A stretch of DNA of 64,000 nucleotides from Nitrospirota bacterium (lineage in GTDB: Bacteria; Nitrospirota; Thermodesulfovibrionia; Thermodesulfovibrionales; UBA9159). The DNA is taken from assembly GCA_963699545.1 (NCBI GenBank), contig CAVOUE010000009.1, forward strand, positions 32,001 to 96,000, read 5' to 3'. Below are positions 21,322 through 45,783 of the stretch, one piece after another (position 1 is the stretch's first letter; the number at the start of each line of letters is the position of its first letter). Position numbers and translations under genes: made by a program. Below the pieces are notes generated by a model, which was not told the DNA's origin, searched no databases, and worked only from the letters and a program-made list of their open reading frames with translations.

Positions 21322-22515
21322 TCACTTCCCAAAGGGACAGACCGGATAATTACATGCCTCGCATTTCATGCACAATCCGCCGTGGCCGAGTTCCGCTAGC
21401 TGTCTTCTGCCGATGATTTCCCCGGCAAGGATCCTGGGAAGTACCAGGTCAAAGATCGTTGTCCTGGCATACATGCCGCAGGCCGGAATCCCGAGAATGG
21501 GGATCACTGACGAGTGATGAGTGGTGAGTGGTGAGTTTCCCATACTTTCTTTTGGCTTGTTACTTGTTACTTTCAACTCGTTACTGACGTAAAGGTACGC
21601 CACAAGAAACATGGCCCCCGGCAAGACTGCCGAGCCGTAGGTGACATCGATTGCACCGAGGTTTCCTATCGCGAACCTTGTGACGTCATCAGGGTCAACG
21701 GACATCCCGCCTGTTGTGATGAGCAGGTCCGCACCGGCATTGATCAGCTCTCTCAGCCTTGTCTCAATAAATGATTCGTCGTCAGGCGCGTAGTATGTTC
21801 CGACAATCTCTCCGCCGAATGCCTTTATCTTGTTTGTTATGACCGGTGAAAAGGCGTCCTTCACCCTCCCGTAATATACTTCGTTCCCTGTGATGACCAC
21901 TCCTGCCCGCGGCTTCCTGATCTCTTTCACATGAATAACTTTACCGGCCTTCTCACCAATGCTGACAGCCGCCTGGACAATGTCCTTTCTTACGGTCAGG
22001 GGAACCGCCCTCGTGCCGGCAATGGTCTGTCCTTTCTTCACTACAGTATTGTTATGGAGTGTTGCGCACATGACTTCGCCCAGCATGTTGAACGCGAGGA
22101 GCGCATCTTTATCTATTCTAAGAAGCCCGTCTGCCTCAGCGATGATGTTTATCTTGCCTTCCTTCGGTTCCCCTCTTATACCCACACCCTCTCCCATGAG
22201 GGCATTCGCAAGAGCATAGGCTGCATCGTCTTCGTGCATCTCATCATCTGCGATATTCAGGACAAAGAGATTTTCCTTACCGAGCCTCTGGAGATGGCAT
22301 ACATCCTCCTCCCTGATCACATGCCCTTTCTTAAAGGCCCGTCCCTTGAACTCTCCCGGCCGTATCTCGGTTATGTCATGGGCCAGGACTGTGCCCACCG
22401 CCTCGGTCACCGGAATACGCCCGGAAGTCTGGAAGGTTGGAAGTTCAGAAGTCTTTGGGTCCATTGCTTCCGTGCTTCCGCTCCTTTGCCCTTCTGCCCT
22501 TTCGCTCTCACACAT
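21322..22515 (-). CDS. Molybdopterin-binding (MoeA/MoaB-like) protein with C-terminal Cys cluster; two periodic-repeat insertions
   Basis: EAVGTVLAHDITEI, ITGNEV, TGGMSVDPDD, GGLCMKCEACNYPVCPFGK. Confidence 0.88.
   Translation of the reverse strand: MCESERAEGQRSGSTEAMDPKTSELPTFQTSGRIPVTEAVGTVLAHDITEIRPGEFKGRAFKKGHVIREEDVCHLQRLGKENLFVLNIADDEMHEDDAAYALANALMGEGVGIRGEPKEGKINIIAEADGLLRIDKDALLAFNMLGEVMCATLHNNTVVKKGQTIAGTRAVPLTVRKDIVQAAVSIGEKAGKVIHVKEIRKPRAGVVITGNEVYYGRVKDAFSPVITNKIKAFGGEIVGTYYAPDDESFIETRLRELINAGADLLITTGGMSVDPDDVTRFAIGNLGAIDVTYGSAVLPGAMFLVAYLYVSNELKVTSNKPKESMGNSPLTTHHSSVIPILGIPACGMYARTTIFDLVLPRILAGEIIGRRQLAELGHGGLCMKCEACNYPVCPFGK
21512..21590. repeat. Intragenic inverted array of 7-nt units
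   Basis: GAGTGAT GAGTGGT GAGTGGT GAGTTTC ... CTTGTTA CTTGTTA CTTTCAA CTCGTTA. Confidence 0.8.
22423..22504. repeat. Intragenic inverted array of 8-nt units
   Basis: GGAAGTCT GGAAGGTT GGAAGTTC AGAAGTCT ... TGCTTCCG TGCTTCCG CTCCTTTG CCCTTCTG CCCTTTCG. Confidence 0.75.
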
Positions 22516-22526
22516 AAAAACCTCCT

Positions 22527-23489
22527 CTATGATCCTTTTGCCATGAATATTTTGTCGAATCGCTCATCGACCAGCTCCTGCATCCCTTTCTCCAGGGCTT
22601 CGTAATTCTTCAGGAATTTTCGCGCATCTTCGGTCAGGACCGCTCCGCCACCGTTTTTTCCGCCTGTCTGCCGCTCGACCAGCTTCATGCCGAGCCTTTC
22701 TTCCATAGCCTTTATATATCCCCAGGCCTTCCTGTAAGAGATATTTATCTCCTTTGCGGCCCGGTTTATGGAACCATGCTTGTCGATCGCCCTGAGCAAA
22801 TACCTTCTGCCCTTCCCGAAGACGGGCTCGCCGTTCATTTCTATCCAGAGCTTGGATCTGATCTCCATACCGCTATGACTACCTTGCATAACGGGCGGCG
22901 AAAAAAAAGTCTTCCGGGTCGCGTAATAACTTCCCTCGTCGCATGACTTGCAGAGCACCTTGCCGCTCCTATGGACTTCTCTCTTATCCTGAACATGTTC
23001 TCCACATGCATCACATTTGATGCGTCGCATCGGTCTTCCCGGCATATCCTCAGGTTTAAGCTCTACGCACACTTCCATCATGTCAAAGAGCTCGCCGTCA
23101 GGCATTATCTTGTATGCTTCGATCTGGGCGGCGTATTTGTCTTCCGTCTTATTCTGACAGGCCTTTGCCTTTTCCCTGGCCTCTTCCCTTCCGATGATCC
23201 TGACCGCTTTCCCTGTCTTCAGGTCCACAAAGGTCGCAGCCATCTTTCCGTAATCCAGGAACTTCATTGTCCTGTGTCCAAGACTGCAACCCGTGACGGA
23301 CTGAATGGCGTCGGTTGCACACCGGTCCATCTCGACGAACACGATGAGGCTCTTTTTGTCCTTCCCCTTCGGATCCGTGATCCCGATCTCCCGCAGCCCG
23401 AGGATGGACATCCTTACCCCGAGCACCTGGCCCGGACACAGATGGCCGTGAATCTTGGTCGATTCTTTCAGCAGCAGCTCAAAATCCAT
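22527..23489 (-). CDS. FmdE-family protein + C4 zinc finger fused to a ModE-type winged-helix domain
   Basis: HGHLCPGQVLG, CATDAIQSVTGCSLG, CDAC..CKSC, then LLRAIDKHGSINRAAKEINISYRKAW...GGKNGGGAVLT. Confidence 0.87.
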   Translation of the reverse strand: MDFELLLKESTKIHGHLCPGQVLGVRMSILGLREIGITDPKGKDKKSLIVFVEMDRCATDAIQSVTGCSLGHRTMKFLDYGKMAATFVDLKTGKAVRIIGREEAREKAKACQNKTEDKYAAQIEAYKIMPDGELFDMMEVCVELKPEDMPGRPMRRIKCDACGEHVQDKREVHRSGKVLCKSCDEGSYYATRKTFFSPPVMQGSHSGMEIRSKLWIEMNGEPVFGKGRRYLLRAIDKHGSINRAAKEINISYRKAWGYIKAMEERLGMKLVERQTGGKNGGGAVLTEDARKFLKNYEALEKGMQELVDERFDKIFMAKGS

Positions 23490-23566
23490 AACTCCAAACA
23501 CTCTCTTGCCTTATTGATATTTAATACTACCATACCACCTGGAAATGTAAATGTTCCGTTCATCGG

Positions 23567-24151
23567 CTATTTCAAGAACGAAAGGAAAGAAGCCGTCGCC
23601 CTTGACAATTCCCGGTAAAGCAGTAAAACGGCTGCATCTTCCATATCGCGTGCAAAATTAGGAAGCCACTCCATCAGGTGCTCCCTGATGAATTTGTCAG
23701 CTATCTTAACGTAATGATCTCTGTTCCCTGTCTCGTCACTTATCCTTTGGAACAGTATGGCCAGAAAATTCAGTTCGGCCCCAATGTGGTCGGGCATTAC
23801 GTCGGCCGAATTGACCGTTAAGCCAGTTTCGCGGTAAAGGTCCAGAACCTCATCGGCCGCTGTCTGCATCATCAGTCCTTTCGGAGATGTATAAACGGAT
23901 TCCCAAGGCGGACACGGCAATTTGTAGGGCCCTATAAAAAGCCGCGTATATTCCCACAGGAGGTCCTCCATCTCCTGCTCGGATGCTGGGTCTATCTCGT
24001 CGACCGCCTTTTTCAGGTCATGCATGAAGATCGCGGCATCATCAGCGAGCAGCCTTTTCCAGTTTTCTACAGCTTCTTTCGAAGGTTTGCACAAGTACAT
24101 GTTGCTCATCAGGTTAAGCGCCATTGCCGGACTCATCATCGTAATAACCAT
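23567..24151 (-). CDS. TorD/DmsD-family molybdoenzyme chaperone
   Basis: EYTRLFIGP, PPWESVY, PDHIGAELNF. Confidence 0.92.
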   Translation of the reverse strand: MVITMMSPAMALNLMSNMYLCKPSKEAVENWKRLLADDAAIFMHDLKKAVDEIDPASEQEMEDLLWEYTRLFIGPYKLPCPPWESVYTSPKGLMMQTAADEVLDLYRETGLTVNSADVMPDHIGAELNFLAILFQRISDETGNRDHYVKIADKFIREHLMEWLPNFARDMEDAAVLLLYRELSRATASFLSFLK

Positions 24152-24203
24152 AATAACCTCTGCATGGGAGAGCGGCACAAGGCCGCTCTCCCATGGACTC
24201 TTT

Positions 24204-24779
24204 TCATTTGTTCTCGGAGAATCTCACCGACGGGATCGTCATCTTTGGATCTGAAAACGCCGGCAACCTGTCCTTGAGAGGTCTTCTGTATATCTCAGGG
24301 GGTGTCTTCTGAGCCTCGATGTCCGACATTTTCCCATGCCACAAGGCATACCCCGGGCAGGTTCTCACACAAGCCGGTGGTAAACCTTCCTTCAGTCTGT
24401 GAATGCAAAGCGTGCATTTGTCCATTTTCTTCTTTTTCTCATCAAAGGTCGGCGCTCCGTAAGGACATGCAGCAGCACAGCGCTTGCAGCCTATGCACTT
24501 GTCCTGGTTGATCAGGACAACGCCGAACTCCGGCTCCTTTGTTATTGCCTGAGACGGACAGGCTTTCATGCACGCAGGCTCAGTGCAATGATTGCAGGCT
24601 GTGGAGAGATACCTGACCTTGGTATTGGGATACTTACCATCTTCTTTTATGATGACTCTCCTGCGCCTCACTCCTATAGGCAAATCAAATTCCTGCTTGC
24701 ATCCCGCTTCACAGGCCCTGCATGCGATGCAATTATTCTCGTTGTAATACCAACCTACCTGTTTTGGATTCTTTGCCAT
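24204..24779 (-). CDS. Four-cluster [4Fe-4S] subunit (DmsB/PsrB type)
   Basis: CIACRACEAGC, CNHCTEPACMKACP, CIGCKRCAAACP, CTLC..PACVRTCP. Confidence 0.93.
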   Translation of the reverse strand: MAKNPKQVGWYYNENNCIACRACEAGCKQEFDLPIGVRRRRVIIKEDGKYPNTKVRYLSTACNHCTEPACMKACPSQAITKEPEFGVVLINQDKCIGCKRCAAACPYGAPTFDEKKKKMDKCTLCIHRLKEGLPPACVRTCPGYALWHGKMSDIEAQKTPPEIYRRPLKDRLPAFSDPKMTIPSVRFSENK

Positions 24780-24792
24780 GTTTATAACCTCC

Positions 24793-27288
24793 CTATACCT
24801 TCACCAGCTTGACGCCGATCTCTTTGTGGACCGCCATGCCGGAGAACTTCTCCGCCTTGCCGGGCAAGAACTGTCCGTCATTGGTCCCCGCAGGAGACCA
24901 TGCATTGATTTTATTTAAGGATCCCTTCGCCACCTTGCCGAAGCCCCAGTGTCCATAGCCGTGCTGGAGTGCGACCACCTCGGGATGTATCCTTTCCGTC
25001 ACCTGAACGGTGCCCTTGGCCTTCGCAAAGGGAGATTCAATCCAGACGGCGTCCCCATCCTTGAGCCCGAGTTTGGCCGCCGTTGCCGAATTGATGAGCA
25101 GCGGATTGTCAGGTTTCATCTCCATCAGATAATCGTTATTGAAGGTCCTCGAATGGGTATGCTCGTTCTGCTTGAAATTGACGAGATACAGCGGGAATTC
25201 GGAAGTCGGCTTGTCTTCGGGGTCGCTATACTCGGGAAGGCCGCTGTATTTATGCTTCTTCAGAAAGGCAGAAGTAACTTCGAGCTTTCTCGTCGGAGTA
25301 TCAAAGCCCTTCATGATTTTGTCGCCGATCTTTACGCCGACTGCCTTGCCGTCCTTGTCCTTGACAACACCCGTCTTTTCATCGACAATGCCGCCTTCGG
25401 GCATCTTCACTTCCTTTCTGAACTTCTCATACTCGGTCTTGCCGCTCATGGCGAGGGTCGATTTCTTGTACGCCTCCCAGTCCTGCTCTTTGGCATATGC
25501 GGTCGGTTTATACTCATCTGCATAATAGGCGTCATAGGAATGCTCGGTAGGGGCATACCCTTTCTTGTCCTTCATGCCAAGTTTCTTCATTACTGCCATC
25601 CAGAACTCTACCTCGGTGAGGCCGTTAATGACCGACTTCACAACTGGCTTTCTCAGGCCAAGCACAGGCCATGTGACCCAGTATCCGGTAAAGTCGTACC
25701 TCTCAAGATACACTGAGCCCGGGATAACTATGTCCGCAAGTTCTGCCGTCTCGCTCATATGTGTGTCGTTTACGACCACATATTCGAGCTTCTTTATGAA
25801 GTCCACATTCTTCTTCGTGTTCGGAACTGACATGACAAAATTCTGATATACGAAAACACCTGCCTTCGGTACTCCCGAGCCCTGGGATGATTCCTTACCG
25901 TTCAGGACTACGTCTCTGGTCTCGACATAAATGCCTGAGCCGTGACCGAGGATGTATTTGGTTCCTTTGCCGTCAACCCTCGGTTTCTTAAGGGAAGGCG
26001 CATCGTAGTCGAGACTATGATGTTTGTTGCCTATCTTACTTGGCTCCATCATAGTACCCGGTTTGTCGATCATTCCGAGCAAAGCTGGAAGAACCGTAAT
26101 GGCATATCCCCCCAGGGTCGCGTTCGTGTGATGCCCTGGCCCGCTCCATGTATCGATACAAACTGGTTTTCCGGTCTTTGCCAACTCTCCCATCTCGGTG
26201 GCTATTTGTTCAATAGTCCTGGCCGAGACAGATGTGATCTTCTCTGCCCATTCAGGCGTCTTATCTGCAACAAATTTCGCATATTCATCAAAACCGACGC
26301 ACCATTCATCGATGAAGGCCTTGTTGACAAGGTTCTTCTTGATCAGGACATGACCAATGGCGAGAGCCATTGCACCGTCTGTCCCGGGTCTCAGCGGCAC
26401 CCACTGGTCTGCCTTTGCCGCCGTTTGGCTGCAGAAGGGATCAACATAAACCATCCTTGCACCCTTCGCCCTGCCCCTGTTCCATATGCCCGGCAGGAGG
26501 ATCCACTTTGTTGCTCCCAGGAGGTTCCAGCCGAATACTAGGGCATACGAGGTGTCTTCAAAATCCGCAAGGGGACGTTCATTTCCCATGACCAGTTTAA
26601 ATGAAGCCTTTCTCGCAACGTCACAGAGGTTGGCATGATTATGGTAATTGGGAGTGCCGTACATCTTGCAGAAGTCCTGCTGGATATGAGTAAAGCAGTG
26701 GTCTTCGCTGAACCATGCAAGACTCTCCGCACCGTGCTTATCCTTTATCTTCTGAAGATTGTCTGCAACCTGGTTGATTGCCTCTTCCCATGAGATTGCC
26801 TTCCATTTGCCGCTGCCTCTCTCACCGACTCTGACCATAGGGGTTTTCAGCCTGTCAGGATCATAGAGGGATCTCAGCCCTGAGTTGCCTTTCGAACAGA
26901 GCCTGCCTGCGGCGTCGTTATCCTTATACATGGCGCCCAGCTTTTTAACTACCTTGTCGAAATTTGTCGAAATATTGGCAATGTTGTTAGGGTTGGCAAT
27001 ACCCTCGATCTTTACCGCCCTACCGTTGACAACCTTGACTTTGATGCCGGACTGACCACCGCACATATTGCAGTTACTGTAAATCCATTCACCCTCTTTA
27101 AGGCTTTTCTCCTGTGCGCTCGCTTCTCTGAAAAGACCGAGTTTCTCGTCCCAGAGAATGCCGCTGGCTATCGCAGCACCTGCTAGCGCCGACGACCATT
27201 TCAGGAAAGTCCGCCGCGTGAACTGCTTTCCTGTAGCACCTTCAAACAGACTCTTTTCTTCTTCGGTTATATCTCTTCTTTCGCTCAT
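24793..27288 (-). CDS. Tat-exported Mo/W-bisPGD oxidoreductase catalytic subunit, PsrA/PhsA-like clade, substrate unknown
   Basis: GGAGG RBS, TRRTFLK signal, CNMCGGQS...LCSKG, YDPDRLKTP, YGTPNYHNHANLC (Cys ligand), HTHSRT. Confidence 0.88.
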   Translation of the reverse strand: MSERRDITEEEKSLFEGATGKQFTRRTFLKWSSALAGAAIASGILWDEKLGLFREASAQEKSLKEGEWIYSNCNMCGGQSGIKVKVVNGRAVKIEGIANPNNIANISTNFDKVVKKLGAMYKDNDAAGRLCSKGNSGLRSLYDPDRLKTPMVRVGERGSGKWKAISWEEAINQVADNLQKIKDKHGAESLAWFSEDHCFTHIQQDFCKMYGTPNYHNHANLCDVARKASFKLVMGNERPLADFEDTSYALVFGWNLLGATKWILLPGIWNRGRAKGARMVYVDPFCSQTAAKADQWVPLRPGTDGAMALAIGHVLIKKNLVNKAFIDEWCVGFDEYAKFVADKTPEWAEKITSVSARTIEQIATEMGELAKTGKPVCIDTWSGPGHHTNATLGGYAITVLPALLGMIDKPGTMMEPSKIGNKHHSLDYDAPSLKKPRVDGKGTKYILGHGSGIYVETRDVVLNGKESSQGSGVPKAGVFVYQNFVMSVPNTKKNVDFIKKLEYVVVNDTHMSETAELADIVIPGSVYLERYDFTGYWVTWPVLGLRKPVVKSVINGLTEVEFWMAVMKKLGMKDKKGYAPTEHSYDAYYADEYKPTAYAKEQDWEAYKKSTLAMSGKTEYEKFRKEVKMPEGGIVDEKTGVVKDKDGKAVGVKIGDKIMKGFDTPTRKLEVTSAFLKKHKYSGLPEYSDPEDKPTSEFPLYLVNFKQNEHTHSRTFNNDYLMEMKPDNPLLINSATAAKLGLKDGDAVWIESPFAKAKGTVQVTERIHPEVVALQHGYGHWGFGKVAKGSLNKINAWSPAGTNDGQFLPGKAEKFSGMAVHKEIGVKLVKV

Positions 27289-27302
27289 TCTGTTTCCTCC
27301 TC

Positions 27303-27656
27303 TTATTGTGCAAATAAGACTTTGGCGCCTTTTACCCCGCCACTGTGGCATCCGGCACAAAGCTGCGAGTCGACCTGTTTCCTCAATGCAGCTGCGGAAC
27401 CGTCTCTCAAATCAATTGACTTGTGACAGTCCGAGCACTGCTTCGGCGTTGCAAGCTTGGATTCAAGGTGTACCCTGTGAAAGGTCTTGAACTTCTTGTT
27501 CGCGGACACGTCTTTCTTGATGTTGCCGTGGCAGGCCAGACACTCCTTCGTGCTCACCTTGCCGGCATTCTTATGTAGGTCAATGAGATTCTTCTCGTCC
27601 GCTCCGGCAGCTGAAGCAAACAATAAAACCAGGCAGACAATCAAAGCCTTCTTCAT
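27303..27656 (-). CDS. Periplasmic triheme cytochrome c
   Basis: Signal peptide MKKALIV...; CLACH, CSDCH, CAGCH; AGGAGG RBS. Confidence 0.88.
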   Translation of the reverse strand: MKKALIVCLVLLFASAAGADEKNLIDLHKNAGKVSTKECLACHGNIKKDVSANKKFKTFHRVHLESKLATPKQCSDCHKSIDLRDGSAAALRKQVDSQLCAGCHSGGVKGAKVLFAQ

Positions 27657-27738
27657 ATTCCTCCTCCTTTCGTTCTTTTTCACGTCCTATTTTTCTCACC
27701 TCATCAATTTTTTTGCATGATAGAACCCTTCTATTAGT

Positions 27739-27754
27739 TACAACTTTCTTGCCA
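27739..27754 (-). promoter_or_regulatory. Sigma-54 (-24/-12) promoter
   Basis: TGGCAAG-AAAG-TTGTA versus consensus TGGCACG-N4-TTGCW; lies next to an NtrC-type activator gene. Confidence 0.7.
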
Positions 27755-27758
27755 GTTG

Positions 27759-27771
27759 TAACGTATTGATT
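27759..27771 (-). promoter_or_regulatory. IHF-binding site
   Basis: AATCAA-TACG-TTA matches WATCAA-N4-TTR. Confidence 0.6.
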
Positions 27772-27793
27772 TGTTGGAATTATTTCTCGGGGA

Positions 27794-27898
27794 GTGTTAC
27801 GAAAAGGAAACACCCAAAAGGTGTTACCGCTAACTAATTGACTTGATTATGTTTTTTCGTGAAGGGCAAAAAGGAGTGCCGTTACTTTTCTGTAACAC
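27794..27898. promoter_or_regulatory. Two enhancer-like palindromes (consensus GTGTTAC-N6-GTAACAC)
   Basis: GTGTTAC-gaaaag-GAAACAC (27794-27813) and CCGTTAC-ttttct-GTAACAC (27879-27898); half site GTGTTAC at 27821. Confidence 0.6.
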
Positions 27899-27914
27899 TT
27901 ACCAATAGCAGATG

Positions 27915-29252
27915 CTATTCAATTCCATATGCCTTCATCTTTTCCCACAGAGTCTTTCTGCTTATACCGAGCATCTCTGCTGCCTTTGTTTTGTTACCTT
28001 GTGTGGTTTGCAGTACCATGATGATGTGGCCTTTCTCAGCATCAGCAGCGATATCGGAAAGGAAAAGGCTTTTTGCTTCTGGCGTATCAGTCCTGATATA
28101 AGAGGGCAGTGCATCCTTGCTGATCACATCAGACATAGAAAGGATTATGCACCGTTCTATGATATTCTCAAGTTCCCTCACATTTCCCGGGTAGTCATAG
28201 GCAAGAAGCATTTCAACAGCTTCGTTGGAAAAGCGGACATTCTTTGAGGTCCTCTTCCTGTATCTGTCCATGAACAACTCGACGAGAAGGGGGATATCCG
28301 CTCTCCTATCCCTTAATGGCGGAAGGGTCATTGGTATGACATTAAGACGGTAATACAGGTCTTCCCTGAAGCGTCCCGCTTTGACTTCTTCTTCCAGGTT
28401 TTTATTTGTCGCAGCGATAATCCTCACATCAACATTCAATGTTACGGTACCACCGATCCTTTCAAACTGCCTTTCCTGTATGACCCTTAAAATCTTAGCC
28501 TGAGTCGCAGGAGGAAGATCTCCAACCTCATCGAGAAAAATAGTGCCTCCGTTGGCGAGTTCAAATCTGCCGGGCTTTCTCCTCACTGCACCCGTAAATG
28601 CTCCGCGCTCATGTCCGAACAGCTCGCTCTCTATAAGTCCTTCAGGCAGGGCAGCACAATTGACCTTTAAAAGAGGCCGGTCTTTCCTTTTGCTCTGATA
28701 ATGGATCGTCGTGGCAACGAGCTCTTTGCCTGTTCCGCTCTCACCGAGGATGAGGACCGTCGCATCCGACACAGAGACCTTTTCAATCAGGGAAAATACC
28801 TTCTTCATCTCAGCGCTTTCACCGATAATGTTGGGAGCGCAGTAACACTTGTTTAGGTCTTTTTTAAGCCTTATGTTCTCCTCTTTCAGCCGTTTTATTT
28901 CGAGCGCACGCTCAACGAGCAAAAGGAATTCATCGAGCGCAAAAGGCTTGGTTATGTAATCGAAGGCCCCAAGTTTCATGGCTTCAACAGCGTCCTTTAT
29001 CGTACCGTAGGCGGTCATAACAATCACCGGAGCATCTTTTGTCCTGGTAATCTCCCGTACAATAGCGAATCCGTCCATATCAGGGAGTCTGACATCGGTC
29101 ACAGCGACATCAAAGAAATCACTCTTCATAGCCTGTAAGGCAGGGCCACCTGCCTCAAAAGACATAACTTCATATCCTGCACCTTTGAGGGCGTCTTCAA
29201 GGGTGACGCGCATAATCTTTTCATCTTCGATGAGCAGGACCGTTTCTTTCAT
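27915..29252 (-). CDS. Sigma-54-dependent response regulator (NtrC family)
   Basis: REC domain, [14 protein letters not shown], Fis-type HTH. Confidence 0.96.
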
Positions 29253-30718
29253 ACCACCTGAGCCGAGGGGAAACGCAGAATGAATCTGCTGCCTTTCCCA
29301 ATGTCGCTTTCCACCGAAATTTCACCATTGTAGTTCCTGACTATCTCATAGGTCAACCAGAGCCCCAGCCCGGTGCCCTCACCGGTAGACTTTGTCGTGA
29401 AAAAAGGATCGAATATCTTGCTGATATTTTCCGCCTCGATGCCGCAACCGCTATCCACCACCTCGATTATCACCTTCGAATCTTCCTTGTATCCCCTGAC
29501 CTGAAGTAAACCGCCGTCCTTCATGGCATGAATGGCATTGATGAAGAGGTTCAGCAGCAACTGCTGGAAATCATGCACATCAAAGATGAAGCGCACATCC
29601 TCAGGAACCTCATTCCTGAAAGCAATCCTGCCCTTTTTCATCTTGTACTCAAGAAAGGAGTAGACACTGTCCACAGAGTTTCTGATGTTCATGTCAACAG
29701 GTGCATGCTCGGCCTTCCGTGACATCCATAACAGCTTGCTGACGGTATTTTCTATCTTGTCCAGTCCTTCGTTTACGAGTTCCAGATACTTCTCCCTGAG
29801 TTCAGGGTTGTCGCTGTTCTGCTTGAGCATCTGGAGACAGTTAAAGATGCCGCCGAGAGGATTGTTGATCTCATGCGCAACGCCGGCAGCAAGAATGCCG
29901 ACAGAGGCGAGTTTTTCGGATTGGACGAGCTTCTCATGTGTCTTCTTCAGTTCCTCATTTGCCTGCTTGATCCTCTCGATCATGCTGTTGAATCGCTCTC
30001 CCAGAACAGCAAGCTCATCATGCCCTTTTACGTCAACCCTGAGATCAAGATAGTCTCCCCTTGCCTGTTCCATCGTATTTGCAAGCTGTGTTATTGGACT
30101 GATGAACCGGCGACTTAACAGCAGAATGATTGCAAAGCCCGCTGCGAGGAGGGCAACAGTCAAGATCATGATTCTTTTGACGGTTGCCAGAATTTCATGC
30201 TCGGCCCTTTCGAGGGATATGCCGAATTTCAGCGTTCCCCAGCGTTTCTTGCCGATGGATAAAGGCACGCCGAAATCGAGGGCGTTATGGTCCTTACCCG
30301 CGAAATGCTGTATGACCGTGGTATCCGCCTTAAGGGCCTTTTGCGTCAATGGGTCAGAGTACAGTTTTCCATATTCGGTAATGTTGTTGTGGGATATCAC
30401 CTTGCCTTCTTCATCCAGGATTGCGATATAGAGAAGGTCGGCATCCTGTCTGTTATATATCTCGAGGATATAGTTATCAAGAAGCCCCCCCTCTTCCACA
30501 AGACCAAGCCTCTCGTAAATAAGGTCGTTGATGATCGGGATGGCAAGCGTTTCTCCAAGCAATTTCCCCTGCTTTTCAACTTCAGCATAAAGTATCTTCT
30601 TTTCACGTTCGACTGCAAGATATCCGACAATGCTCATGACCATGATTATTGCACAGGTTGTGATGAGAATAAACTTATACTGGAGCCCCAGCCTTGAAAC
30701 CAGTTTTACTCTACTCAT
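29249..30718 (-). CDS. HAMP sensor histidine kinase
   Basis: Two TM helices, HAMP, AHEINNPL, NLFINA, DSGCG, GTGLGL. Confidence 0.95.
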   Translation of the reverse strand: MSRVKLVSRLGLQYKFILITTCAIIMVMSIVGYLAVEREKKILYAEVEKQGKLLGETLAIPIINDLIYERLGLVEEGGLLDNYILEIYNRQDADLLYIAILDEEGKVISHNNITEYGKLYSDPLTQKALKADTTVIQHFAGKDHNALDFGVPLSIGKKRWGTLKFGISLERAEHEILATVKRIMILTVALLAAGFAIILLLSRRFISPITQLANTMEQARGDYLDLRVDVKGHDELAVLGERFNSMIERIKQANEELKKTHEKLVQSEKLASVGILAAGVAHEINNPLGGIFNCLQMLKQNSDNPELREKYLELVNEGLDKIENTVSKLLWMSRKAEHAPVDMNIRNSVDSVYSFLEYKMKKGRIAFRNEVPEDVRFIFDVHDFQQLLLNLFINAIHAMKDGGLLQVRGYKEDSKVIIEVVDSGCGIEAENISKIFDPFFTTKSTGEGTGLGLWLTYEIVRNYNGEISVESDIGKGSRFILRFPSAQVV

Positions 30719-32460
30719 AGCTTTATCTTCGGGTGACAGCCCTTGCCGCAGGTCTGAGGTACTGCATTGATCTTCGAACGGATCTCACCGTAATCTTTGT
30801 CAGAGGCTTCAATAAAACCGTTCCTATATTCTTCATCAAGACGCTTTAATACGTTCTGTCTGTCTCTATTCTGAGAATTCAAGTCAAGAAGTGCCTTTTT
30901 AATATTCTCTATAACCGCATAGGGTGTCCCGGGTCCCGCAACGAGCGGCCCCGTGGGAATGGAAGCAGATTCGGCAATGGCCTCAATGCCTAACTTGGCA
31001 TATTTCTTTGCAACTGAGTCTCTTACAGCGCCGACAGTATACTGACCTTTCAGAATCGCCTTCACAACAGAATCGTGATAATCAAAATTGGCATACTCGG
31101 TCAGGTCGCTGAGATGTATCCCTGAGTTGGCAAGAAGATACCGTGGCATGAGATTGCCGGACGTGGACTTAGAGGAAGCAAAGGCAACACTTCTCCCTTT
31201 TAGATCGGAGATATCCCTCACAGGCGAATCCTTCTTTCTTATCATCACACTTTTGTAGGTCGCACTACCGTCTGCGCCTTTTGGCTTTAAGATGCTGATT
31301 GCGCCGAACTTTGCGTGAGCTTCCAGATACGTCAATGGGCCAAGAAGCGCCAGGTCCATCTCCCCATTGCCGAGGGCGTTTACCGTCTCCTCATAGTTCT
31401 TCTTCAGGACAAGCTCATAGGTGTATGGCGTCTCTGATGCGAGATAATCAAGGAGGGGCTGGTACTTTTCATACATGATTCTCGGATTATCCCTCGGGAT
31501 CACCCCGAAAGAGACGGTCTTCTTGTCCTTGATCTTCCCTGTACCTTTTGAGCTTTCAACGATGGCACGCTCCATCTCCCTTATCGTGTCATAGTTTTTG
31601 TCAGGCACCTCAACGAACCCATCGATCATCATGGCGGCAAGAATCTTCTTTCCTTTCGATGTTTTCTGCATGGAGAGAAAGGCATCCTTTACCTTTTTCC
31701 TGAGTTCCGGGTCAATGTCCCGCGTGACAACCACAGGAGGGATGCCATAGGGGGGAGAGCGTTTGATGATTTTTGTCTGTTTGGCATAAGGAGAACCTGT
31801 CTTCAGCATATGATCATAGACAATGCTTTCAACCGCTGCGCCGTCAACAATTTTCTTGGCGACCATCTCCACTGATTTGTTGTGGCTGTAGCTAAAAAGG
31901 AATCGGTTGAAAAATCTCTCTGGAGTGAATCCCATAGTCTTTAACAGGTAGGTCGGATAGAGTTTGCCGGTGTTGGATTTAGGGTCAGTGAATGCAAAGA
32001 CCTTTCCCTTGAGCTCCGGGAAGCTTTTCATGGAACTGTCGCCATGGACGATTATATAGGAGTGATAGATGGGTTTGCCGTTCACGCTGGGAGCTGCAAC
32101 AAGCTCTACACCAAACTGCTCGCGGTTCTTTACGTACGGGGCTGAACAGATGAATGCGATCTTGACCTCGCCTTTTTCGAGCAGAGAGTCCATTTCGTCA
32201 TAGGTCCTCCTGTGGACCATCTGCACCGGCTGGCCGATCTGCTCACCTATATAATCGATGACATCCTGGTAGTATTTGACAGCATCGACCGGGGTGATCA
32301 TCGAGGCAACGCCGATCTTGACGACATTATTAGGCTGGGCAAAGGTGTTCTGCTGACTGCAAATGAGAAGAACAACGATGAGAAGGAGTAATACGATTGA
32401 ATAAATTGGTCTGTATCCAAAACACGGTCTGAGAGAAAAATATTTACTAATTGATTTCAT
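30715..32460 (-). CDS. Tandem double-domain PhnD/AioX-like periplasmic oxyanion-binding protein
   Basis: Two repeats of LKG..AF....S.(T/S)G...P and HD/NKSV..V; AFICSAPY in domain 1; C-terminal CGKGCH. Confidence 0.85.
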   Translation of the reverse strand: MKSISKYFSLRPCFGYRPIYSIVLLLLIVVLLICSQQNTFAQPNNVVKIGVASMITPVDAVKYYQDVIDYIGEQIGQPVQMVHRRTYDEMDSLLEKGEVKIAFICSAPYVKNREQFGVELVAAPSVNGKPIYHSYIIVHGDSSMKSFPELKGKVFAFTDPKSNTGKLYPTYLLKTMGFTPERFFNRFLFSYSHNKSVEMVAKKIVDGAAVESIVYDHMLKTGSPYAKQTKIIKRSPPYGIPPVVVTRDIDPELRKKVKDAFLSMQKTSKGKKILAAMMIDGFVEVPDKNYDTIREMERAIVESSKGTGKIKDKKTVSFGVIPRDNPRIMYEKYQPLLDYLASETPYTYELVLKKNYEETVNALGNGEMDLALLGPLTYLEAHAKFGAISILKPKGADGSATYKSVMIRKKDSPVRDISDLKGRSVAFASSKSTSGNLMPRYLLANSGIHLSDLTEYANFDYHDSVVKAILKGQYTVGAVRDSVAKKYAKLGIEAIAESASIPTGPLVAGPGTPYAVIENIKKALLDLNSQNRDRQNVLKRLDEEYRNGFIEASDKDYGEIRSKINAVPQTCGKGCHPKIKL

Positions 32461-32464: not shown

Positions 32465-33401
32465 TCATTTTAGCACCCCTTTAACAATCACATCTACCGC
32501 CTCTTCAGGCGTCAGTCCGTGCGCCATGAGTGTCTCCATCTGGCGTTTGTCAACGCTCCCGATGGCAGCTTCATGGGTCACTTTTGCGAGGGGATTTGTG
32601 ACATTCACTATCGGAATCGCCTTTGCTACTGCCCTGTCTTTAACAATTTCCATGCAGTCCACATGCCCCCTTGCACCTTCTGCATTTCCTTCGGTAATGC
32701 CGGTGACTTCAGCCTGTGCATCGTCTTCAATGGCAACCCTGGTTTTTATAATACTTCGCGAGTTTTTACCCGCCAGAACGACTTTTTCCTTTATATTTAT
32801 ATCGTCGTTGGCATGGCCGAAGACCCGTGCCGTCAATTCGGTCACAGCATTTTCTCCTGCTTCGACAGAGTAGTCCATATCGAGTTTGCCGACCCGTCCC
32901 GTAGTCAGGGTAAAATCTGTAAAGTATCTGCCGTTCTTGGCGATTCTGACAACTGACTTTCGGAACAACTTCAATGCCTCCGTAAAGCCCGTGATAATGG
33001 GTCTCCGAATATCTCATCTCTGCACCTTCGCCGATCTCAACCACCGCGTCCATGATATGCCGTACCTTCTCAGCATTCGGAAATATGCAGTGGGCAATGA
33101 AATGGGCAGATGAGTTCTTTTCAAGCCTCACATCCATCTTGATCTTCTGGGTTCCCTTTTTGTGCAGAACACCGAAACAGAGATGCACCGGGTTCTTTAT
33201 TTTTATGCCTTCTTTAACCGTAACCCTGGCGCTGATGCCGGTCGATGTCTCTTTAGCATCAACCTCAAGGCCCTCGACACTTTTCATGCTCAGCAGTTTA
33301 TGGCCGCTTGCGACAAGGTGCGCTATCTCATTGTTTTCAAGGACAGCCTTGTCGCCACCGGCGTTCCCCAATGCCTTCATCAATGCATCAAGATCAGACA
33401 T
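32465..33401 (-). CDS. sufB: SufB/SufD-family (SmsB-like) Fe-S scaffold; frameshift near 32960
   Basis: PVHLCFG, AHCIFP, GHVDCMEIV, AKVTHEAAIGSVD, ETLMAHGL; ORFs 32766-33428 and 32465-32974 join. Confidence 0.82.
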
Positions 33402-34112
33402 AAGCGCATACCTCTCCATCGCATACAAGGCATTTCCTTGATTTATAGTATTCAGCTACCTTTGTCGGGATTCCCTGAGCAGACTATTTTCCCATTGCAT
33501 ATCTGTGAAGCCTTGTCGGCAATGACGACAATCTCTTCCCGGTGGGTAATGAGCAAGCACAGATGAACCATTTTCCTTGAATGCATTGATGACATTGACA
33601 ATATCCTGGGTAGAAAGCATGTCTATCCCCGAATCAGGCTCATCGAGGATGGCAAGTTTTGGATGTAATGCAAGTATGGACGCAAGTTCTATCCTCTTTC
33701 GTTCACCTCCGCTCAGGGACTTGTCGACCATCCTGTGCAGATAGAGCTCAGGATGAAGTCCAACCATCTCGAGATACTGAGACGGATCGCTGTCTCTTGT
33801 CTTTCAGCGCCAGATAATCCCTGACCGAAATACCCTCAAACCTCACCGGCTCCTGCCAGGCCATGGTTATGCCGAGGTTTGCCCTCTCATGGATCTTGAG
33901 GTCATTGATTACCTTCCCTCAAACACTATTTCCCCGGATGAAGGCCTGTATCCCTCACAGCCCATGACTAGATATGCAAGGGTGCTTTTGCCGGTGCCGT
34001 TTGTGCCGAGCAGGGCATGGACCTCTGAGACCCCGATGGTCATGGAGAAATCATCAAGGATATTCTTATCACCTGTATGGAAGGTAATTCCTTTGATTTT
34101 CAGCAAAGACAT
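33394..34112 (-). CDS. sufC: SufC-like ABC ATPase (SmsC-like); about 3 frameshifts
   Basis: GTNGTGKST, AWQEPVRFEG, LSGGERKRIELA, ILDEPDSGID, restored C-terminus KCLVCDGEVC. Confidence 0.8.
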
Positions 34113-39869: not shown

Positions 39870-40949
39870 CTATGATGGTTTAATGTCTTTCACCCTGCAA
39901 GAGTCAATGGCGAAGTATGTCTTCTGGAAATACAGAGCGACGTTCACCAGACTTATTAGGACGGGGACCTCTACAAGCGGGCCAATGACCGCAGCAAAGG
40001 CAGAGCCGGAATTGATACCGAAAACGGCAACGGCAACGGCTATGGCAAGTTCAAAGTTGTTGCTTGCCGCGGTGAAGGAAAGCGTGGCTGTCTTCGGATA
40101 ATCCGCTCCTATCTTTCTGCCTAAATAGAATGAGACGAGGAACATGACAACAAAATAGATGAGGAGCGGGATTGCTATACGGACAACATCCAGCGGAAGT
40201 CTCACAATGTAATTGCCCTTCAGTGAAAACATGACGAGGATGGTAAAAAGCAGGAAGATGAGCGTGATAGGACTTATCCTTGGGACAAATACCTTTTCAT
40301 ACCACTCGCGGTTCCTGATCTTAAGCAGGCTGAAGCGGGTTATCATCCCAGCAAGAAAAGGTATTCCCAGATAGATGAAGACGCTTTCTGCGATCTGGCC
40401 TATGGTGACATTGACTACCACACCCTTTAGCCCGAACCATGCCGGCAGCACGGTTATAAAGACATAGGCATAGACAGAGAAGAAGAGGACCTGAAATATC
40501 GAATTGAAGGCCACAAGACCGGCAGCATATTCCGTATCACCACAGGCAAGGTCGTTCCATACGATAACCATTGCGATACAGCGTGCAAGGCCAATCATGA
40601 TGAGCCCGACCATGTATTCCGGATAAGCCCTAAGAAAGATGATCGCCAGCAGGAACATCAGGACAGGTCCTATAACCCAGTTCTGGATCAGGGAGAGTCC
40701 GAGAACCTTCCTGTTTCTGAAGACCTCTCCCAGTTCCTCATACTTCACCTTTGCAAGCGGGGGATACATCATAAGGATAAGGCCGATAGCAATGGGGATA
40801 TTTGTTGTGCCGACCTGGAAACTGTTTATGAGTGCTTCAGTCCCCGGCACGAAATATCCGAGGCCGACACCACAGGCCATGGCAGCGAATATCCACAGGG
40901 TAAGGTAACGATCAAGGAAAGAAAGTCTCTTGCCTTTTTTTTCGGTCAT
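39870..40949 (-). CDS. acr3: ACR3-family arsenite/antimonite efflux transporter
   Basis: [38 protein letters not shown]. Confidence 0.96.
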
Positions 40950-41329
40950 TTACAGCCCCCGGCGCATCGTTTCTTTTCAGGAAGAGGCACGACATTGTCC
41001 CTGGCGGGCTTGTCCTGCATGAAATGAGCAAGCCTTCTCCTGTCCTCTGCAATGGCCTCTTTCGGTATCCTTTCGAGGACCGAAACAAGCAGGAACCTCC
41101 GGAAAAAGTCCGCGTCGTCGATGCTGTAATGGGTCCATCGTCCCTGTTTCCTGTCTTTCAGAAAGCCGGCCTCTTTCAGCACGTTCAGGTGAAAGGATAC
41201 TTTCGGCTGAACCATATCAAGGCCCGCAACGATGTCACATACGCAGAGTTCTCCATGCTCAAGCAGCTTCAAGATCCTGAGCCTTGTTTCCTCCGAAAGC
41301 GCTTTGAAGATATTGATCATTTCCTGCAT
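40946..41329 (-). CDS. arsR: ArsR transcriptional repressor
   Basis: [16 protein letters not shown]-terminal CAGGC. Confidence 0.94.
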
Positions 41330-41330
41330 G

Positions 41331-41570
41331 CTACACCTCTTCCTTAATCACGGCTTTCACTTTTTCAATGTTCGGCAGCGGCTTGCCGGAATGTTTGAGC
41401 TTGCCATTGACGAGAAGCCCAGGGGTGGACATGGTATATTTCATGATCTCCTGAATATCGGAAATCTTCTCAACCTTAGCATCCATGCCGAGTTCCTTCA
41501 GCGCTGTTTTCGCCAGCTGCTCCACTGTGTGACAATTGGCACATCCCGGACCTAATACTTTGATTTCCAT
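41331..41570 (-). CDS. Small redox-active disulfide (thioredoxin-like) protein
   Basis: MEIKVLGPGCANC, MSTPGL. Confidence 0.9.
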   Translation of the reverse strand: MEIKVLGPGCANCHTVEQLAKTALKELGMDAKVEKISDIQEIMKYTMSTPGLLVNGKLKHSGKPLPNIEKVKAVIKEEV

Positions 41571-41596
41571 AATCGAATCCTCCTTATAGTTCACAT

Positions 41597-42046
41597 TCAA
41601 CACTTTTTGGGCAACATACTAATTGCTGATTTTCGCTCGCCCAGTCGAGGCAACTTGACATGAAAGACCTGTGATGCCGCAAGAAGCCCGGCCTTGACGA
41701 TCAAGTCAGCAGGGATCGTCTCATGGGTCTGATCAGCATACTTAACAGTTCTGCATTCTGCGTCTCCACAAACCTCACAACAGGGGCTTTGTCCAGTCCG
41801 TGCGCCCAGCCACTCTTCAAGCGTCTTTCCAGCAATTAGGATTTTATTTGACTGTGATACATCCTTCATGAAAGCCTCAGGCTCGACAGCCTTTTTCACC
41901 AGGCTGACATTAATCTCAAAAGGCTTGAGCTCACGGGTAAGACTGGCTGCGGCCTTTTCCACTTGCTGCTCAGTCGAACCGCACCGCGGACATGTCTTCT
42001 TATGTTCATCGAGCAATCTTTGCCATTCAATGCTAAGTGTTTTCAC
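41597..42046 (-). CDS. DUF2703-like Cys-rich protein
   Basis: TCPRCGST, CCEVCGDAECRT, IPADLI. Confidence 0.78.
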   Translation of the reverse strand: MKTLSIEWQRLLDEHKKTCPRCGSTEQQVEKAAASLTRELKPFEINVSLVKKAVEPEAFMKDVSQSNKILIAGKTLEEWLGARTGQSPCCEVCGDAECRTVKYADQTHETIPADLIVKAGLLAASQVFHVKLPRLGERKSAISMLPKKC

Positions 42047-42057
42047 AGCTATGCCTC

Positions 42058-43008
42058 CTACAAAATCGCATTGAAGATATACCCTACCGCTGTAATAGTT
42101 ACAGCCATGATCCCTGCAAAAACAGCCAGCAAAGGAATCTTTAAAACCTTCCTCAGGATTATCATCTCAGGAAGAGACAAGGCGGTCACAGCCATCATAA
42201 ACGCAAGGACAGTCCCCATGCTCAAGCCTTTCTCCATAAGGGCATAGACGATCGGAATAACTCCTGCGGCATTAGAATAGAGCGGGACGCCAAGTGCAAC
42301 AGCCATGGGCACAGCAAAAGGATTGCCATTGCCTGCATATCGGATAAGAAAGTCCTGCGGTACATAGCCGTGAATAAAACCTCCTATAGCGATAGCCAGG
42401 ACAACAAACAACCATACCCTCTTTAGGATGTCTGCCGTATTCAATTTCGCGTACTGAAGCCTTTCCTTGAATGGCTGAGTGAAGACTTCCTGTCCCTGAC
42501 CGGTTTTGATCTTGTATACGTACTCCTCAACCCATTTCTCAAGCTTCAGTTTCCCGATTATTAATCCTGCCAGGACCGCTATCAAAAGACCGGTGCCCAT
42601 ATAAATCGCCGCTATCTTCCAGCCAAATAGCCCCCAGAGGAGGACCACGGCTACTTCATTTACCATTGGTGAGGAGATTACGAAAGAGAATGTAACACCC
42701 AAGGGTATACCGGCCTCCACAAAGCCTATGAACAGCGGCACAGCCGAGCAGGAGCAGAATGGGGTGACAGTACCAAGCAGGGCAGCCAGAATGTTACCAA
42801 TAAATTCCCGTTTATGAGATAAAATACGTTTGGTCTTTTCTGGCGGGAAATAGCTCCTGATCACTGAAACAATAAAGATGATGACGGCAAGCAGCAGAAA
42901 TATCTTGATCGTGTCGTAGATAAAGAAATTAAGGGCGTCTGCGAGCCGGGAACCTTGGTCAAGTTTTACAACGCCATAGGTTATGTGAGATGCAACATCT
43001 TTCAGCAT
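42058..43008 (-). CDS. arsP: ArsP-family permease
   Basis: TPFCSCSAVP, SSPMVNE, GVPLYSN, LSLPE. Confidence 0.9.
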   Translation of the reverse strand: MLKDVASHITYGVVKLDQGSRLADALNFFIYDTIKIFLLLAVIIFIVSVIRSYFPPEKTKRILSHKREFIGNILAALLGTVTPFCSCSAVPLFIGFVEAGIPLGVTFSFVISSPMVNEVAVVLLWGLFGWKIAAIYMGTGLLIAVLAGLIIGKLKLEKWVEEYVYKIKTGQGQEVFTQPFKERLQYAKLNTADILKRVWLFVVLAIAIGGFIHGYVPQDFLIRYAGNGNPFAVPMAVALGVPLYSNAAGVIPIVYALMEKGLSMGTVLAFMMAVTALSLPEMIILRKVLKIPLLAVFAGIMAVTITAVGYIFNAIL

Positions 43009-43287: not shown

Positions 43288-43581
43288 CTACTCCTTCAGG
43301 CTGTCAGGCACCGAACTTCCCGTCTTGAACTGCTCGAAGGCCTCGTCCAGTTCGTTTTCGTTGCAGGAATACGCCAGGCCGGCGGAGAGCACATGGGGAA
43401 GGTTCATGATCGCCTTCATCTTCCGGACCTCTTCACCCGTGTCCCTGCCCTCCAGAGTGACGATTATCTTCCCTGAGTCATCATGGAAATGGACATCGCA
43501 CAGCCCTGAAGACTTCAGACTTTCCAGCACATTCTGGAGGTGTTCAGGCGCTGCCTTGACCACGATGCCTGATATATTCAT
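43288..43581 (-). CDS. napD: NapD chaperone
   Basis: MNISGIVV, GKIIVTLE; last gene of the nap run. Confidence 0.9.
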   Translation of the reverse strand: MNISGIVVKAAPEHLQNVLESLKSSGLCDVHFHDDSGKIIVTLEGRDTGEEVRKMKAIMNLPHVLSAGLAYSCNENELDEAFEQFKTGSSVPDSLKE

Positions 43582-44162
43582 TCGGCTTTTACCCCCTCGT
43601 TCAGGGAATCTATCAGGTCAGAGCTTGTCTTGCTCTTCTTGTTTCTGAAGTCAGCCTTGAACTGGTTCTTTATAGGCTCGGGGATATTGACCTGCGGCAC
43701 ATGGCACTGCATGCAGCCGTACCGTTTGCCGTCGAGCTTGCCTCCAAGGTACTTTCCCGTATCCATATCAATAAAATGGGACTTCGGCAAAGCAGTTGCC
43801 CCAAGGCTCTTTGCAACGTCGGGCATATGACAGTTAAGACACATATTGTTCGTCTCTGCGATGGGGAGCATGCCGGTCAGATCATGGGGTATCAGAGGAG
43901 GGCTGTTTTCAAAGGCCCTCTCTATCCTCCTGCTCTTGCCGGGCTCCGTCTTGCTGTATTCTCCGTGTTCGGGCTTGACCTTTTCCTCTTCATAGATCGA
44001 CTCTTTCCTGATCCCGAGGTCCTCCTCACCCTGCGACTTCTTGTCGGCCATCGCAATGCCGGACCAGAAGAAAATAGTCATAGCCAAAAAGGCTGCGACC
44101 ACTTTTCTGTGTTCATTTCTTATCATATGAGCCTCCTTTCCCCTTTGCTCTTCCCTTTTCAT
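43578..44162 (-). CDS. napB: NapB diheme cytochrome c
   Basis: RAFENSPPLIPH, CLNCH, CMQCHVPQ; start may be slightly downstream. Confidence 0.93.
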   Translation of the reverse strand: MKREEQRGKEAHMIRNEHRKVVAAFLAMTIFFWSGIAMADKKSQGEEDLGIRKESIYEEEKVKPEHGEYSKTEPGKSRRIERAFENSPPLIPHDLTGMLPIAETNNMCLNCHMPDVAKSLGATALPKSHFIDMDTGKYLGGKLDGKRYGCMQCHVPQVNIPEPIKNQFKADFRNKKSKTSSDLIDSLNEGVKAE

Positions 44163-44950: not shown

Positions 44951-44955
44951 CACGA

Positions 44956-45768: not shown

Positions 45769-45783
45769 ACGCAGCCGACGCCC

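Follow-up and report, generated by a model that had tools for sequence, protein, structure and literature searches.

Microbial arsenate respiration is held largely responsible for arsenic release into groundwater, and the marker genes counted in field surveys are arrA, arxA and aioA. The arsenate reductase ArrAB of Shewanella sp. ANA-3 (PDB 6CZ7) is a soluble A-B dimer with a Cys ligand to molybdenum (Mo), a TorD chaperone and no NrfD anchor in its operon. PsrABC and PhsABC, represented by PsrA of Thermus thermophilus (PDB 2VPW), combine export by twin-arginine translocation (Tat), a Cys ligand and a four-cluster B subunit with an NrfD-type anchor (PsrC/PhsC). AnrA, with which we could compare by description only, is a DMSO-reductase-family respiratory reductase of a group-15 oxyanion, Sb(V), in Desulfuribacillus stibiiarsenatis and Geobacter sp. 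SVR (PMC12183865, PMC13284237; here and below, papers are cited for the parts of their text that were available). In the AioXSR, ArxXSR and ArrXSR systems, a binding protein, a kinase and a response regulator precede the enzyme genes; AioX, ArxX and ArrX have seven pocket residues in common, and the pocket Cys is missing from PhnD (PMC5908839). Here we describe a module in a 64,000-nucleotide stretch of a Nitrospirota genome (assembly GCA_963699545.1, contig CAVOUE010000009.1, positions 32,001 to 96,000; hereafter the window), in which a trio of the same kind precedes the genes of a soluble molybdoenzyme and a small cytochrome. Its seven co-oriented minus-strand genes span positions 23567-32460:

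23567..24178, minus strand: TorD/DmsD-family maturation chaperone (PF02613, 106 bits against a cut-off of 22.2)
24204..24779, minus strand: iron-sulfur (FeS) subunit B, four-cluster type, 191 residues, no signal peptide, 16 Cys in four groups
24793..27288, minus strand: catalytic subunit with a molybdenum or tungsten bis-pyranopterin guanine dinucleotide cofactor (Mo/W-bisPGD), 831 residues, long Tat leader; TRRTFLKW, YGTPNYHNHANLC and FSEDH all present
27303..27656, minus strand: triheme cytochrome c, 117 residues, signal peptide; likely start ATG at 27656 behind AGGAGG, in the open reading frame (ORF) 27303-27683
27915..29252, minus strand: R, sigma-54-dependent response regulator with receiver, Sigma54_activat (AAA+) and Fis-type HTH_8 domains (Pfam)
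29249..30718, minus strand: S, membrane histidine kinase with sCache_3_2, HAMP, HisKA and HATPase_c domains (Pfam, translation)
30715..32460, minus strand: X, periplasmic sensor binding protein, 581 residues, two Phosphonate-bd domains (Pfam)

We read this module as a respiratory arsenate reductase, perhaps also acting on antimonate, that is soluble, periplasmic and induced by arsenic; it is built on an uncharacterised family of Cys-ligated Mo/W-bisPGD enzymes, and we put the probability of this reading at roughly 55%. Both the substrate and the direction of the reaction are what we infer from sequence. The preliminary description of this DNA had named antimony, arsenic, selenium and sulfur oxyanions as candidates and had left open whether the enzyme is a reductase or an oxidase; the list now narrows towards arsenic, with antimony second, and the direction leans to reduction. 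The seven genes lay on one strand where that description had placed them, and its view of the module as uncharacterised and anchor-less held. Pfam scans of the window ORFs gave no NrfD match (PF03916), and the five NrfD matches of the genome are on contigs C6, C3 and C4, elsewhere than the window (C9:32001-96000). In lacking an anchor gene and having a TorD gene beside a soluble A-B pair, the module resembles ArrAB; unlike the ArrAB genes, its enzyme genes are led by a dedicated triheme cytochrome gene.

The sensor gives the first link to arsenic. Domain 1 of X (residues 44-297) had ArrX of Chrysiogenes arsenatis as its top PDB match (6x6b; 170 bits, E 6.6e-49), followed by AioX of Rhizobium NT-26 (about 150 bits) and PtxB (109 bits), which places ArrX and AioX ahead of PtxB/PhnD; domain 2 (residues 303-557) is PtxB/PhnD-like. 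Compared with the seven pocket residues of AioX, five are identical in X, including the Cys, and the other two differ conservatively (S163T and D210E) (PMC5908839). The FICS motif of X aligns with the Cys of WICG and FICT. By its closest solved relatives and its pocket Cys, X belongs to the AioX/ArxX/ArrX subfamily and is predicted to bind the same kind of ligand, which agrees with the earlier proposal that an AioXSR/ArxXSR-type trio is in control. The sigma-54 AAA+ domain of R scored 247 bits in Pfam, and the top NCBIfam match of R was AtoC/NtrC, under the cut-offs. The C-terminus of X, TCGKGCHPKIKL (30715-30760), contains a CX3CH motif; this end was present in all ten tandem-type X C-termini listed, and tandem X proteins end in TCG(x)(G/S)CHP(K/R)(I/V)xL at loci L009, L013, L017, L018, L021, L022, L034, L062, L194-L196 and L200. 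CX3CH could attach heme c or form a dithiol, and the sensor could then be redox- or As(III)-reactive. Neither this motif nor the tandem domains of X figure in the available text on AioX and ArrX (PMC5908839).

The association with arsenic genes extends to other genomes. Family loci were collected from contigs of one genome per species in three scans, which gave 36 loci, 62 loci and the best 80 of 159 motif-bearing loci; the first two scans, minus same-contig repeats, gave 64 non-redundant loci, whose six-frame ORFs were labelled by BLAST against the window proteins. X-like binding proteins stood beside the enzyme in 26 of the 64, with the AioX-type Cys motif in 22 of 27 such ORFs. Genes for Acr3, ArsP, ArsR or the low-molecular-weight phosphatase (LMWP) type of ArsC occurred in the fetched flanks of 17 loci, upstream, downstream, or between XSR and the cassette. 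Homologues are therefore linked both to XSR and to ars genes. The ars-linked loci came from metagenome-assembled genomes (MAGs) of Nitrospirota, NC10, Geobacteraceae, Chloroflexota, Bacillota and Myxococcota, taxon labels that on short MAG contigs may be binning errors. Five loci without XSR had an ArsR gene in the flank instead, which abuts the cytochrome gene in L020, L028, L031 and L037 and lies about 2 kb upstream of it in L035. The window has its own resistance cluster; the 3.04 Mb genome contains only one other ars locus:

39870..43008, minus strand: arsenic-resistance cluster with ArsP permease, DUF2703, thioredoxin-like, ArsR and Acr3 genes (Pfam), 7.4 kb upstream of X

Directly upstream of these ars genes lies a periplasmic nitrate reductase cluster of napA, napG, napH and a NapB-like cytochrome gene (43578-48555, minus strand).

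We also examined eight ArrA-type genes of sister Nitrospirota with up to 20 kb of surrounding DNA; the products of all eight carry RGRY and a normal CxxCxxxC. In six of the eight loci the flanks encoded S (55-74% identical to that of the window) and R (66-75%). Tandem X was present in four (58-73% identity), each time with the TCGxGCHP end; three of these X proteins have a complete N-terminal domain and carry the FICS-type Cys motif, the fourth (L195) being cut at the locus edge. Two genes that lie 3' of TorD in the window, encoding FmdE-ModE and MoCF proteins, were also found downstream of the arrA operons at five of the eight loci (63-77% identity). Four loci had GTTAC-N6-GTAAC upstream of arrA, and three had TGGCA-N6-TTGA-like elements there. 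Trees of X, S and R did not set ArrA-linked rows apart from family-linked ones: the two kinds interleaved, with three changes in each tree, at least two of them forced by starred branches for X and R; in the X tree, L018 grouped with L194 and L200 with a Shimodaira-Hasegawa-like approximate likelihood ratio (SH-aLRT) support of 97. Because the arrA operons share X, S, R, the upstream motifs and the downstream Mo genes, we conclude that the catalytic cassette has been swapped under one arsenic sensor and that, on this comparison of loci, a single lineage of regulators in a single locus scaffold can be paired with either an arrAB-D or a cytochrome-A-B-D cassette. The enzyme of the window stands in the gene slot of a sister arsenate reductase and is therefore probably an overlooked arsenic-respiring enzyme. 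Among 301 sampled Nitrospirota genomes, 17 had the family (the genome of the window counted) and 21 an ArrA-type protein; none had both, against about one expected by chance, a difference that is not significant.

The catalytic subunit differs clearly from ArrA in sequence. Its family hallmark, WFSEDHSF, stands where ArrA has RGRY (residues 163-166 of ANA-3 ArrA; PMC13685797), RGRY aligning to gap-gap-S-E of WFSEDH; the contrast of RGRY with FSEDH pointed out in the preliminary description is real by alignment. The ArxA motif XGRGWG (PMC13685797) is likewise absent, WFSEDH standing at that site. H218, C222 and K227 align with H189, C193 and K198 in the ArrA numbering of the same paper, so that the Cys ligand and the His and Lys typical of ArrA are all present. 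W192, E195, D196, H218, C222 (the Mo ligand), R226 and K227 were invariant in the alignment, all but W192 being counted in 33 sequences. A second hallmark concerns the proximal cluster, FS0, whose motif in the window is C73-x2-C76-x3-S80...C131: most family members have C-x2-C-x3-(S/T) where relatives, ArrA among them, have the third FS0 Cys, and only a few (P0071, L039, L041 and L094) have Cys at that place. The motif suggests that FS0 is a three-Cys cluster.

On NCBIfam models, the best score was for PhsA (NF012032; 386.6 bits against a cut-off of 694), followed by ArrA (NF041714; 207.1 against 1600) and TtrA (116.7), and no AnrA model appeared among the best 25 of 27 NCBIfam hits. Identity was at least 40% within the family, 32% for L089, about 30% to the PhsA/PsrA-type and about 27% to the ArrA-type proteins of the phylum. 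The best PDB sequence match was Thermus PsrA (234 bits). In a Foldseek search with the AlphaFold model of the subunit (predicted local distance difference test, pLDDT, 86.1), ArrA 6cz7 came first with a template modelling (TM) score of 0.77, and PsrA 2vpw third (TM 0.73), behind the second 6cz7 chain. We built a tree of 81 rows, comprising every second family member, 6 ArrA-type and 14 PhsA/PsrA-type proteins taken from the 301 Nitrospirota genomes by NCBIfam models, and paralogues. The family (52 rows; SH-aLRT 100), the ArrA-type group (100) and the PhsA/PsrA-type group (99) were separate, and the branching order of the three was left unresolved by this quick LG+G4 search, which ran with long-branch warnings and no bootstraps; the groups were labelled by NCBIfam scores and motifs, without named PsrA, PhsA, TtrA, SrrA or AnrA proteins. 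The enzyme thus nests neither in the ArrA/ArxA clade nor in the PhsA/PsrA-type clade. Nesting in the latter, or homologues with no link to XSR or ars genes, would have refuted the preliminary description by its own criteria, and both outcomes were in its favour.

These comparisons bear on whether the enzyme is a reductase of polysulfide, thiosulfate, tetrathionate or selenite of the Psr/Phs/Srr kind that lies near arsenic genes by chance. Such a function would fit the PhsA and PsrA matches, the label 'thiosulfate reductase/polysulfide reductase chain A' that the Joint Genome Institute (JGI) gives to relatives, and a host related to the sulfate reducer Candidatus Sulfobium. The closest named relative of the catalytic subunit is from Candidatus Sulfobium mesophilum (P0008, 90% identity), and the host is therefore a member of the Nitrospirota of the sulfate-reducing kind. 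The PhsA score is, however, far under its equivalog cut-off, the family stands apart from the 14 PhsA/PsrA-type proteins of the phylum, the module has no NrfD anchor, its sensor is of the ArrX/AioX type with the Cys, no rhodanese or sulfurtransferase was seen among the annotated recurrent neighbours, ars genes accompany the family at other loci, and the cassette is exchanged with arrA. We consider a sulfur or selenite reductase very improbable, and we rejected 'thiosulfate/polysulfide reductase' as a statement of membership on the score, the missing anchor and the separate clade; TtrA was likewise set aside on its low model score.

A dedicated antimonate reductase, a member or sister of AnrA with the arsenic-type sensor and ars genes serving antimony, has more in its favour. 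Acr3 and ArsR also handle Sb(III), and hydroxyl-rich Sb(OH)6- could bind E195-D196. According to the preliminary description, a similar XSR layout precedes AnrA. Neither AnrA isolate, however, was found among the best 80 of 159 motif-bearing loci, among the 36 or 62 loci of the other scans, or within the best 120 hits when the window protein or a Bacillota member was the query, and orthologous sensors control canonical arrA. We regard a dedicated antimonate enzyme as unlikely; between antimonate and arsenate as such, sequence cannot tell.

The reductive direction rests largely on the cytochrome. It has three heme motifs (CLACH, CSDCH and CAGCH), matches Pfam Cytochrome_C7 (PF14522; 27.6 bits against a cut-off of 24.8) and, as in c7/c3-type cytochromes, packs three CXXCH and a second His per heme (H28, H60 and H63) into about 100 residues, from which bis-His ligation is predicted. 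All six His were kept in 32 of 32 homologues, and the mature cytochrome of the window has no Met. Bis-His c7/c3-type hemes are low-potential donors, and reduction is favoured because of the six conserved His and the lack of Met: the predicted cytochrome is a better fit for passing electrons to the As(V)/As(III) couple than for receiving them.

The preliminary description had the enzyme wired through this small cytochrome and not a quinol anchor, and both gene order and modelling supported it. The enzyme was at least 55% identical to that of the window in 39 of the 64 loci. Six of these loci start with the enzyme gene or within it; among the other 33, all but L063 had a three-CXXCH ORF (five CXXCH in L068) directly upstream (32 of 33), and the FeS and TorD genes followed 3' of the enzyme throughout. 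A complex model of B with the mature cytochrome scored 0.65 (runs 0.01, 0.66 and 0.65), the best control scoring 0.01; the score mark is one that 58 of 80 solved complexes attained, as did 2 of 110 mismatched pairs. With alignments of our own, contact agreement was at least 18% and partner pLDDT at least 64. The modelled interface joins B residues 66-76 and 95-108 (Cys groups II and III) to heme 3 and the C-terminus of the cytochrome; we take groups II and III to bind the distal cluster, the docking place of PsrC in PsrABC. A 10-11-heme cytochrome gene lay upstream in three of the eight canonical arrA loci, and cytochrome wiring of arsenic enzymes therefore seems usual in Nitrospirota. Perchlorate reductase (pcrABCD) and Desulfovibrio FdhABC3 likewise combine a catalytic and an FeS subunit with a small multiheme cytochrome and no quinol-oxidising anchor, and pcr also has a TorD-type chaperone; these enzymes belong to other superfamily clades with other substrates, and the likeness is one of gene layout. 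In the Myxococcota loci L039 (8995-9897) and L041 (9074-9973), the triheme cytochrome has a long N-terminal extension rich in Gly-Pro repeats (collagen-like).

From these features we propose the following sequence of events. X would bind an arsenic oxyanion in the periplasm and signal to S, which would phosphorylate R; R would then bind GTTAC-N6-GTAAC and open a sigma-54 promoter ahead of the cytochrome gene. TorD would keep hold of the long Tat leader while the catalytic subunit awaits its cofactor, after which the A-B dimer would be exported via Tat and the cytochrome via the general secretory (Sec) route. Menaquinol may supply electrons by way of a quinol dehydrogenase from another part of the genome, where NrfH/NapC-type candidates for this oxidation are present. 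The electrons would pass through the low-potential bis-His triheme cytochrome, docked at the distal cluster of B, and then follow the four FeS clusters and FS0 as far as Mo. As(V) would be reduced there, and the resulting As(III) would be handled by the products of the nearby Acr3/ArsP genes.

Several observations weigh against this proposal. E195 and D196, the invariant acids that replace RGRY, are odd for an anionic substrate; to judge from the residues, neutral As(OH)3 or Sb(OH)3, or else Sb(OH)6-, would fit such a site. FS0 has three Cys in most members, and arsenite oxidase also has a three-Cys cluster (3Fe-4S). The Nap nitrate reductase 11 kb away could take electrons from an oxidase. 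One of the three B-cytochrome runs scored 0.01. The ArrA-type proteins of the phylum, at 1000-1164 bits, also fall under the NCBIfam cut-off for ArrA. A swap at one locus implies that the two cassettes answer to a common signal, but not that they catalyse the same reaction. In being an AtoC-type sigma-54 activator, R resembles AioR and ArxR, the regulators of arsenite oxidases, and differs from ArrR of Chrysiogenes, which is not sigma-54-type (PMC5908839). Part of this evidence would be accounted for by an anaerobic arsenite (or antimonite) oxidase, in which As(III) is oxidised at Mo and electrons leave via B and the cytochrome to periplasmic acceptors such as Nap. The sigma-54 activator, the acidic pair, the three-Cys FS0 and the napAGHB-like genes all suit an oxidase, as do family members in MAGs of NC10 and Brocadiales, groups that live on nitrite. 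The c7-like cytochrome suits a low-potential donor instead, arrA of the RGRY type is under orthologous regulators in sister genomes, the match of X to arsenate-binding ArrX exceeds that to AioX by about 20 bits, and a wholly periplasmic path from As(III) to nitrate would conserve no energy. An oxidase is in our judgement an improbable reading, and we retain arsenate reduction; the acidic pocket and the three-Cys proximal cluster may nevertheless point to another form of substrate (antimonate, thioarsenate or neutral As(III)) or to another chemistry than that of ArrA.

Control of the cassette could be followed into the 258-base spacer between R and the cytochrome gene, which contains six GTAAC/GTTAC pentamers, against about one per kb across the window. 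Three elements were located there:

27881..27896, strand not assigned: palindrome GTTAC-N6-GTAAC, predicted binding site of R (motif scan and comparison of loci)
27809..27825, minus strand: terminator-like hairpin after R, ahead of the enzyme promoter (consensus match)
27737..27762, minus strand: sigma-54-like -24/-12 element TGGCAAGAAAGTTGT (27740-27754) within a 9-bp inverted repeat, GTTACAACT/AGTTGTAAC

GTTAC-N4-20-GTAAC matched only twice in the 64 kb, both times in this spacer (0.22 expected), and GTTAC-N6-GTAAC was found at six of eight loci with orthologous activators and at none of five ArsR loci. R is therefore the likely ligand of this predicted site. The hairpin is a consensus match only, since the sigma-70 and terminator scan overall did not rise above shuffles. 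For the sigma-54 promoter that the preliminary description had claimed, the evidence was divided. The element TGGCAAGAAAGTTGT, about 98 bases ahead of the cytochrome ATG, has GT in place of GC at -12, and the consensus scan of the window gave 35 matches against 54 expected from shuffles, i.e. below chance. It recurred upstream of the cytochrome gene, however, in six of ten activator-adjacent loci (window included, at most two mismatches) and in none of five ArsR-type loci. A GTAAC-containing upstream site and a TGGCA...TTG promoter are reported for arx too (PMC5908839).

The evidence tilts towards the WFSEDHSF clade adding a third lineage, next to Arr/Arx and Aio, to the dissimilatory arsenic (or antimony) molybdoenzymes, one which has repeatedly replaced arrAB under an ArrX-type sensor, occurs in uncultured bacteria of groundwater and sediment (at least 159 species-level genomes), and is invisible to surveys of arrA, arxA and aioA. 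If the family is a working arsenate or antimonate reductase, such surveys overlook organisms that are widespread. That one sensor has had its cassette swapped is also a clean natural experiment on the exchange of respiratory modules, and the replacement of R-Y by E-D in the pocket, with the three-Cys cluster, raises structure-function questions. No described isolate was present among the 36, the 62 and the best 80 of 159 loci, and Carboxydocella sp. JDF658, whose family member (P0184) has no leader, was the only cultured-strain-like name among the 120 best hits of two protein searches. A survey of the molybdoenzyme superfamily reports unnamed novel Cys-ligated lineages, with no mention of an arsenic link in the available text (PMC10100899). 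Our literature search, which included Sulfobium with arsenic and covered main texts, supplements lying outside it, found no description of the WFSEDHSF family. NaoABC, considered along the way, is NapA-like and not relevant here (PMC11521347).

Besides the phyla named above, the family occurs in Omnitrophota, Planctomycetota, Acidobacteriota and others (best 80 of 159 loci). Its distant members are wired differently, with hexaheme cytochromes in Actinomycetota (L038, L084, L090 and L091) and NrfD anchors in Chloroflexota (L083, L087 and L088). In the Actinomycetota loci L038 (16113-18810), L090 and L091, genes for a MOT1-type molybdate transporter, a MobA-MobB fusion, MoaC and a MOSC protein follow the cassette, apparently making these loci self-contained in Mo supply. 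In a Bacillota/SURF subgroup (L077, L078, L079 and L082), the enzyme begins at the FeS motif and has no Tat leader, which suggests that this form is cytoplasmic or exported by a partner; in L082, Acr3 lies directly upstream of the leaderless enzyme.

The two genes that accompany both cassettes continue the window module beyond TorD:

22527..23501, minus strand: FmdE domain fused to a ModE-type helix-turn-helix (Pfam/NCBIfam); neighbour in 23 of 64 loci
21322..22515, minus strand: protein with a molybdopterin-binding MoCF domain (Pfam/NCBIfam); neighbour in 29 of 64 loci

FmdE-ModE is probably a molybdate/tungstate-linked regulator or maturation factor. Its paralogue (C1:12025-14067) and those of MoCF (C1; C5:164145-165158), the latter 70-77% identical to the window gene, adjoin other Mo enzyme genes of the genome. 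Both are general companions of Mo/W enzyme maturation or regulation, not specific to this enzyme. All-against-all clustering of neighbours was polluted by shadow ORFs and was used for leads only.

Some further genes of the window appeared broken or miscalled. Adjoining X, the region 32465-33767 (minus strand) holds a SufBD-core fragment of 169 residues, an unassigned ORF of 220 and an ABC ATPase fragment of 103; L007 and L022 have longer ORFs in the same region, and these suf-like genes look broken in the window. A formate-dehydrogenase-like Mo subunit at 8128-10539 (plus strand), next to NuoE/NuoF-like genes and formate-tetrahydrofolate ligase, was read as two ORFs (8128-8910 and 8923-10539) and has one in-frame TGA by genome scan, probably a selenocysteine codon. 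The large subunit of ribonucleotide reductase at 48858-50604 (plus strand) is split into two overlapping ORFs (48858-49820 and 49735-50604), which may reflect a frameshift, an assembly error or an insert. At 53602-54195 (plus strand), a TatC match spans profile positions 87-204 only, and the gene as called looks N-terminally truncated.

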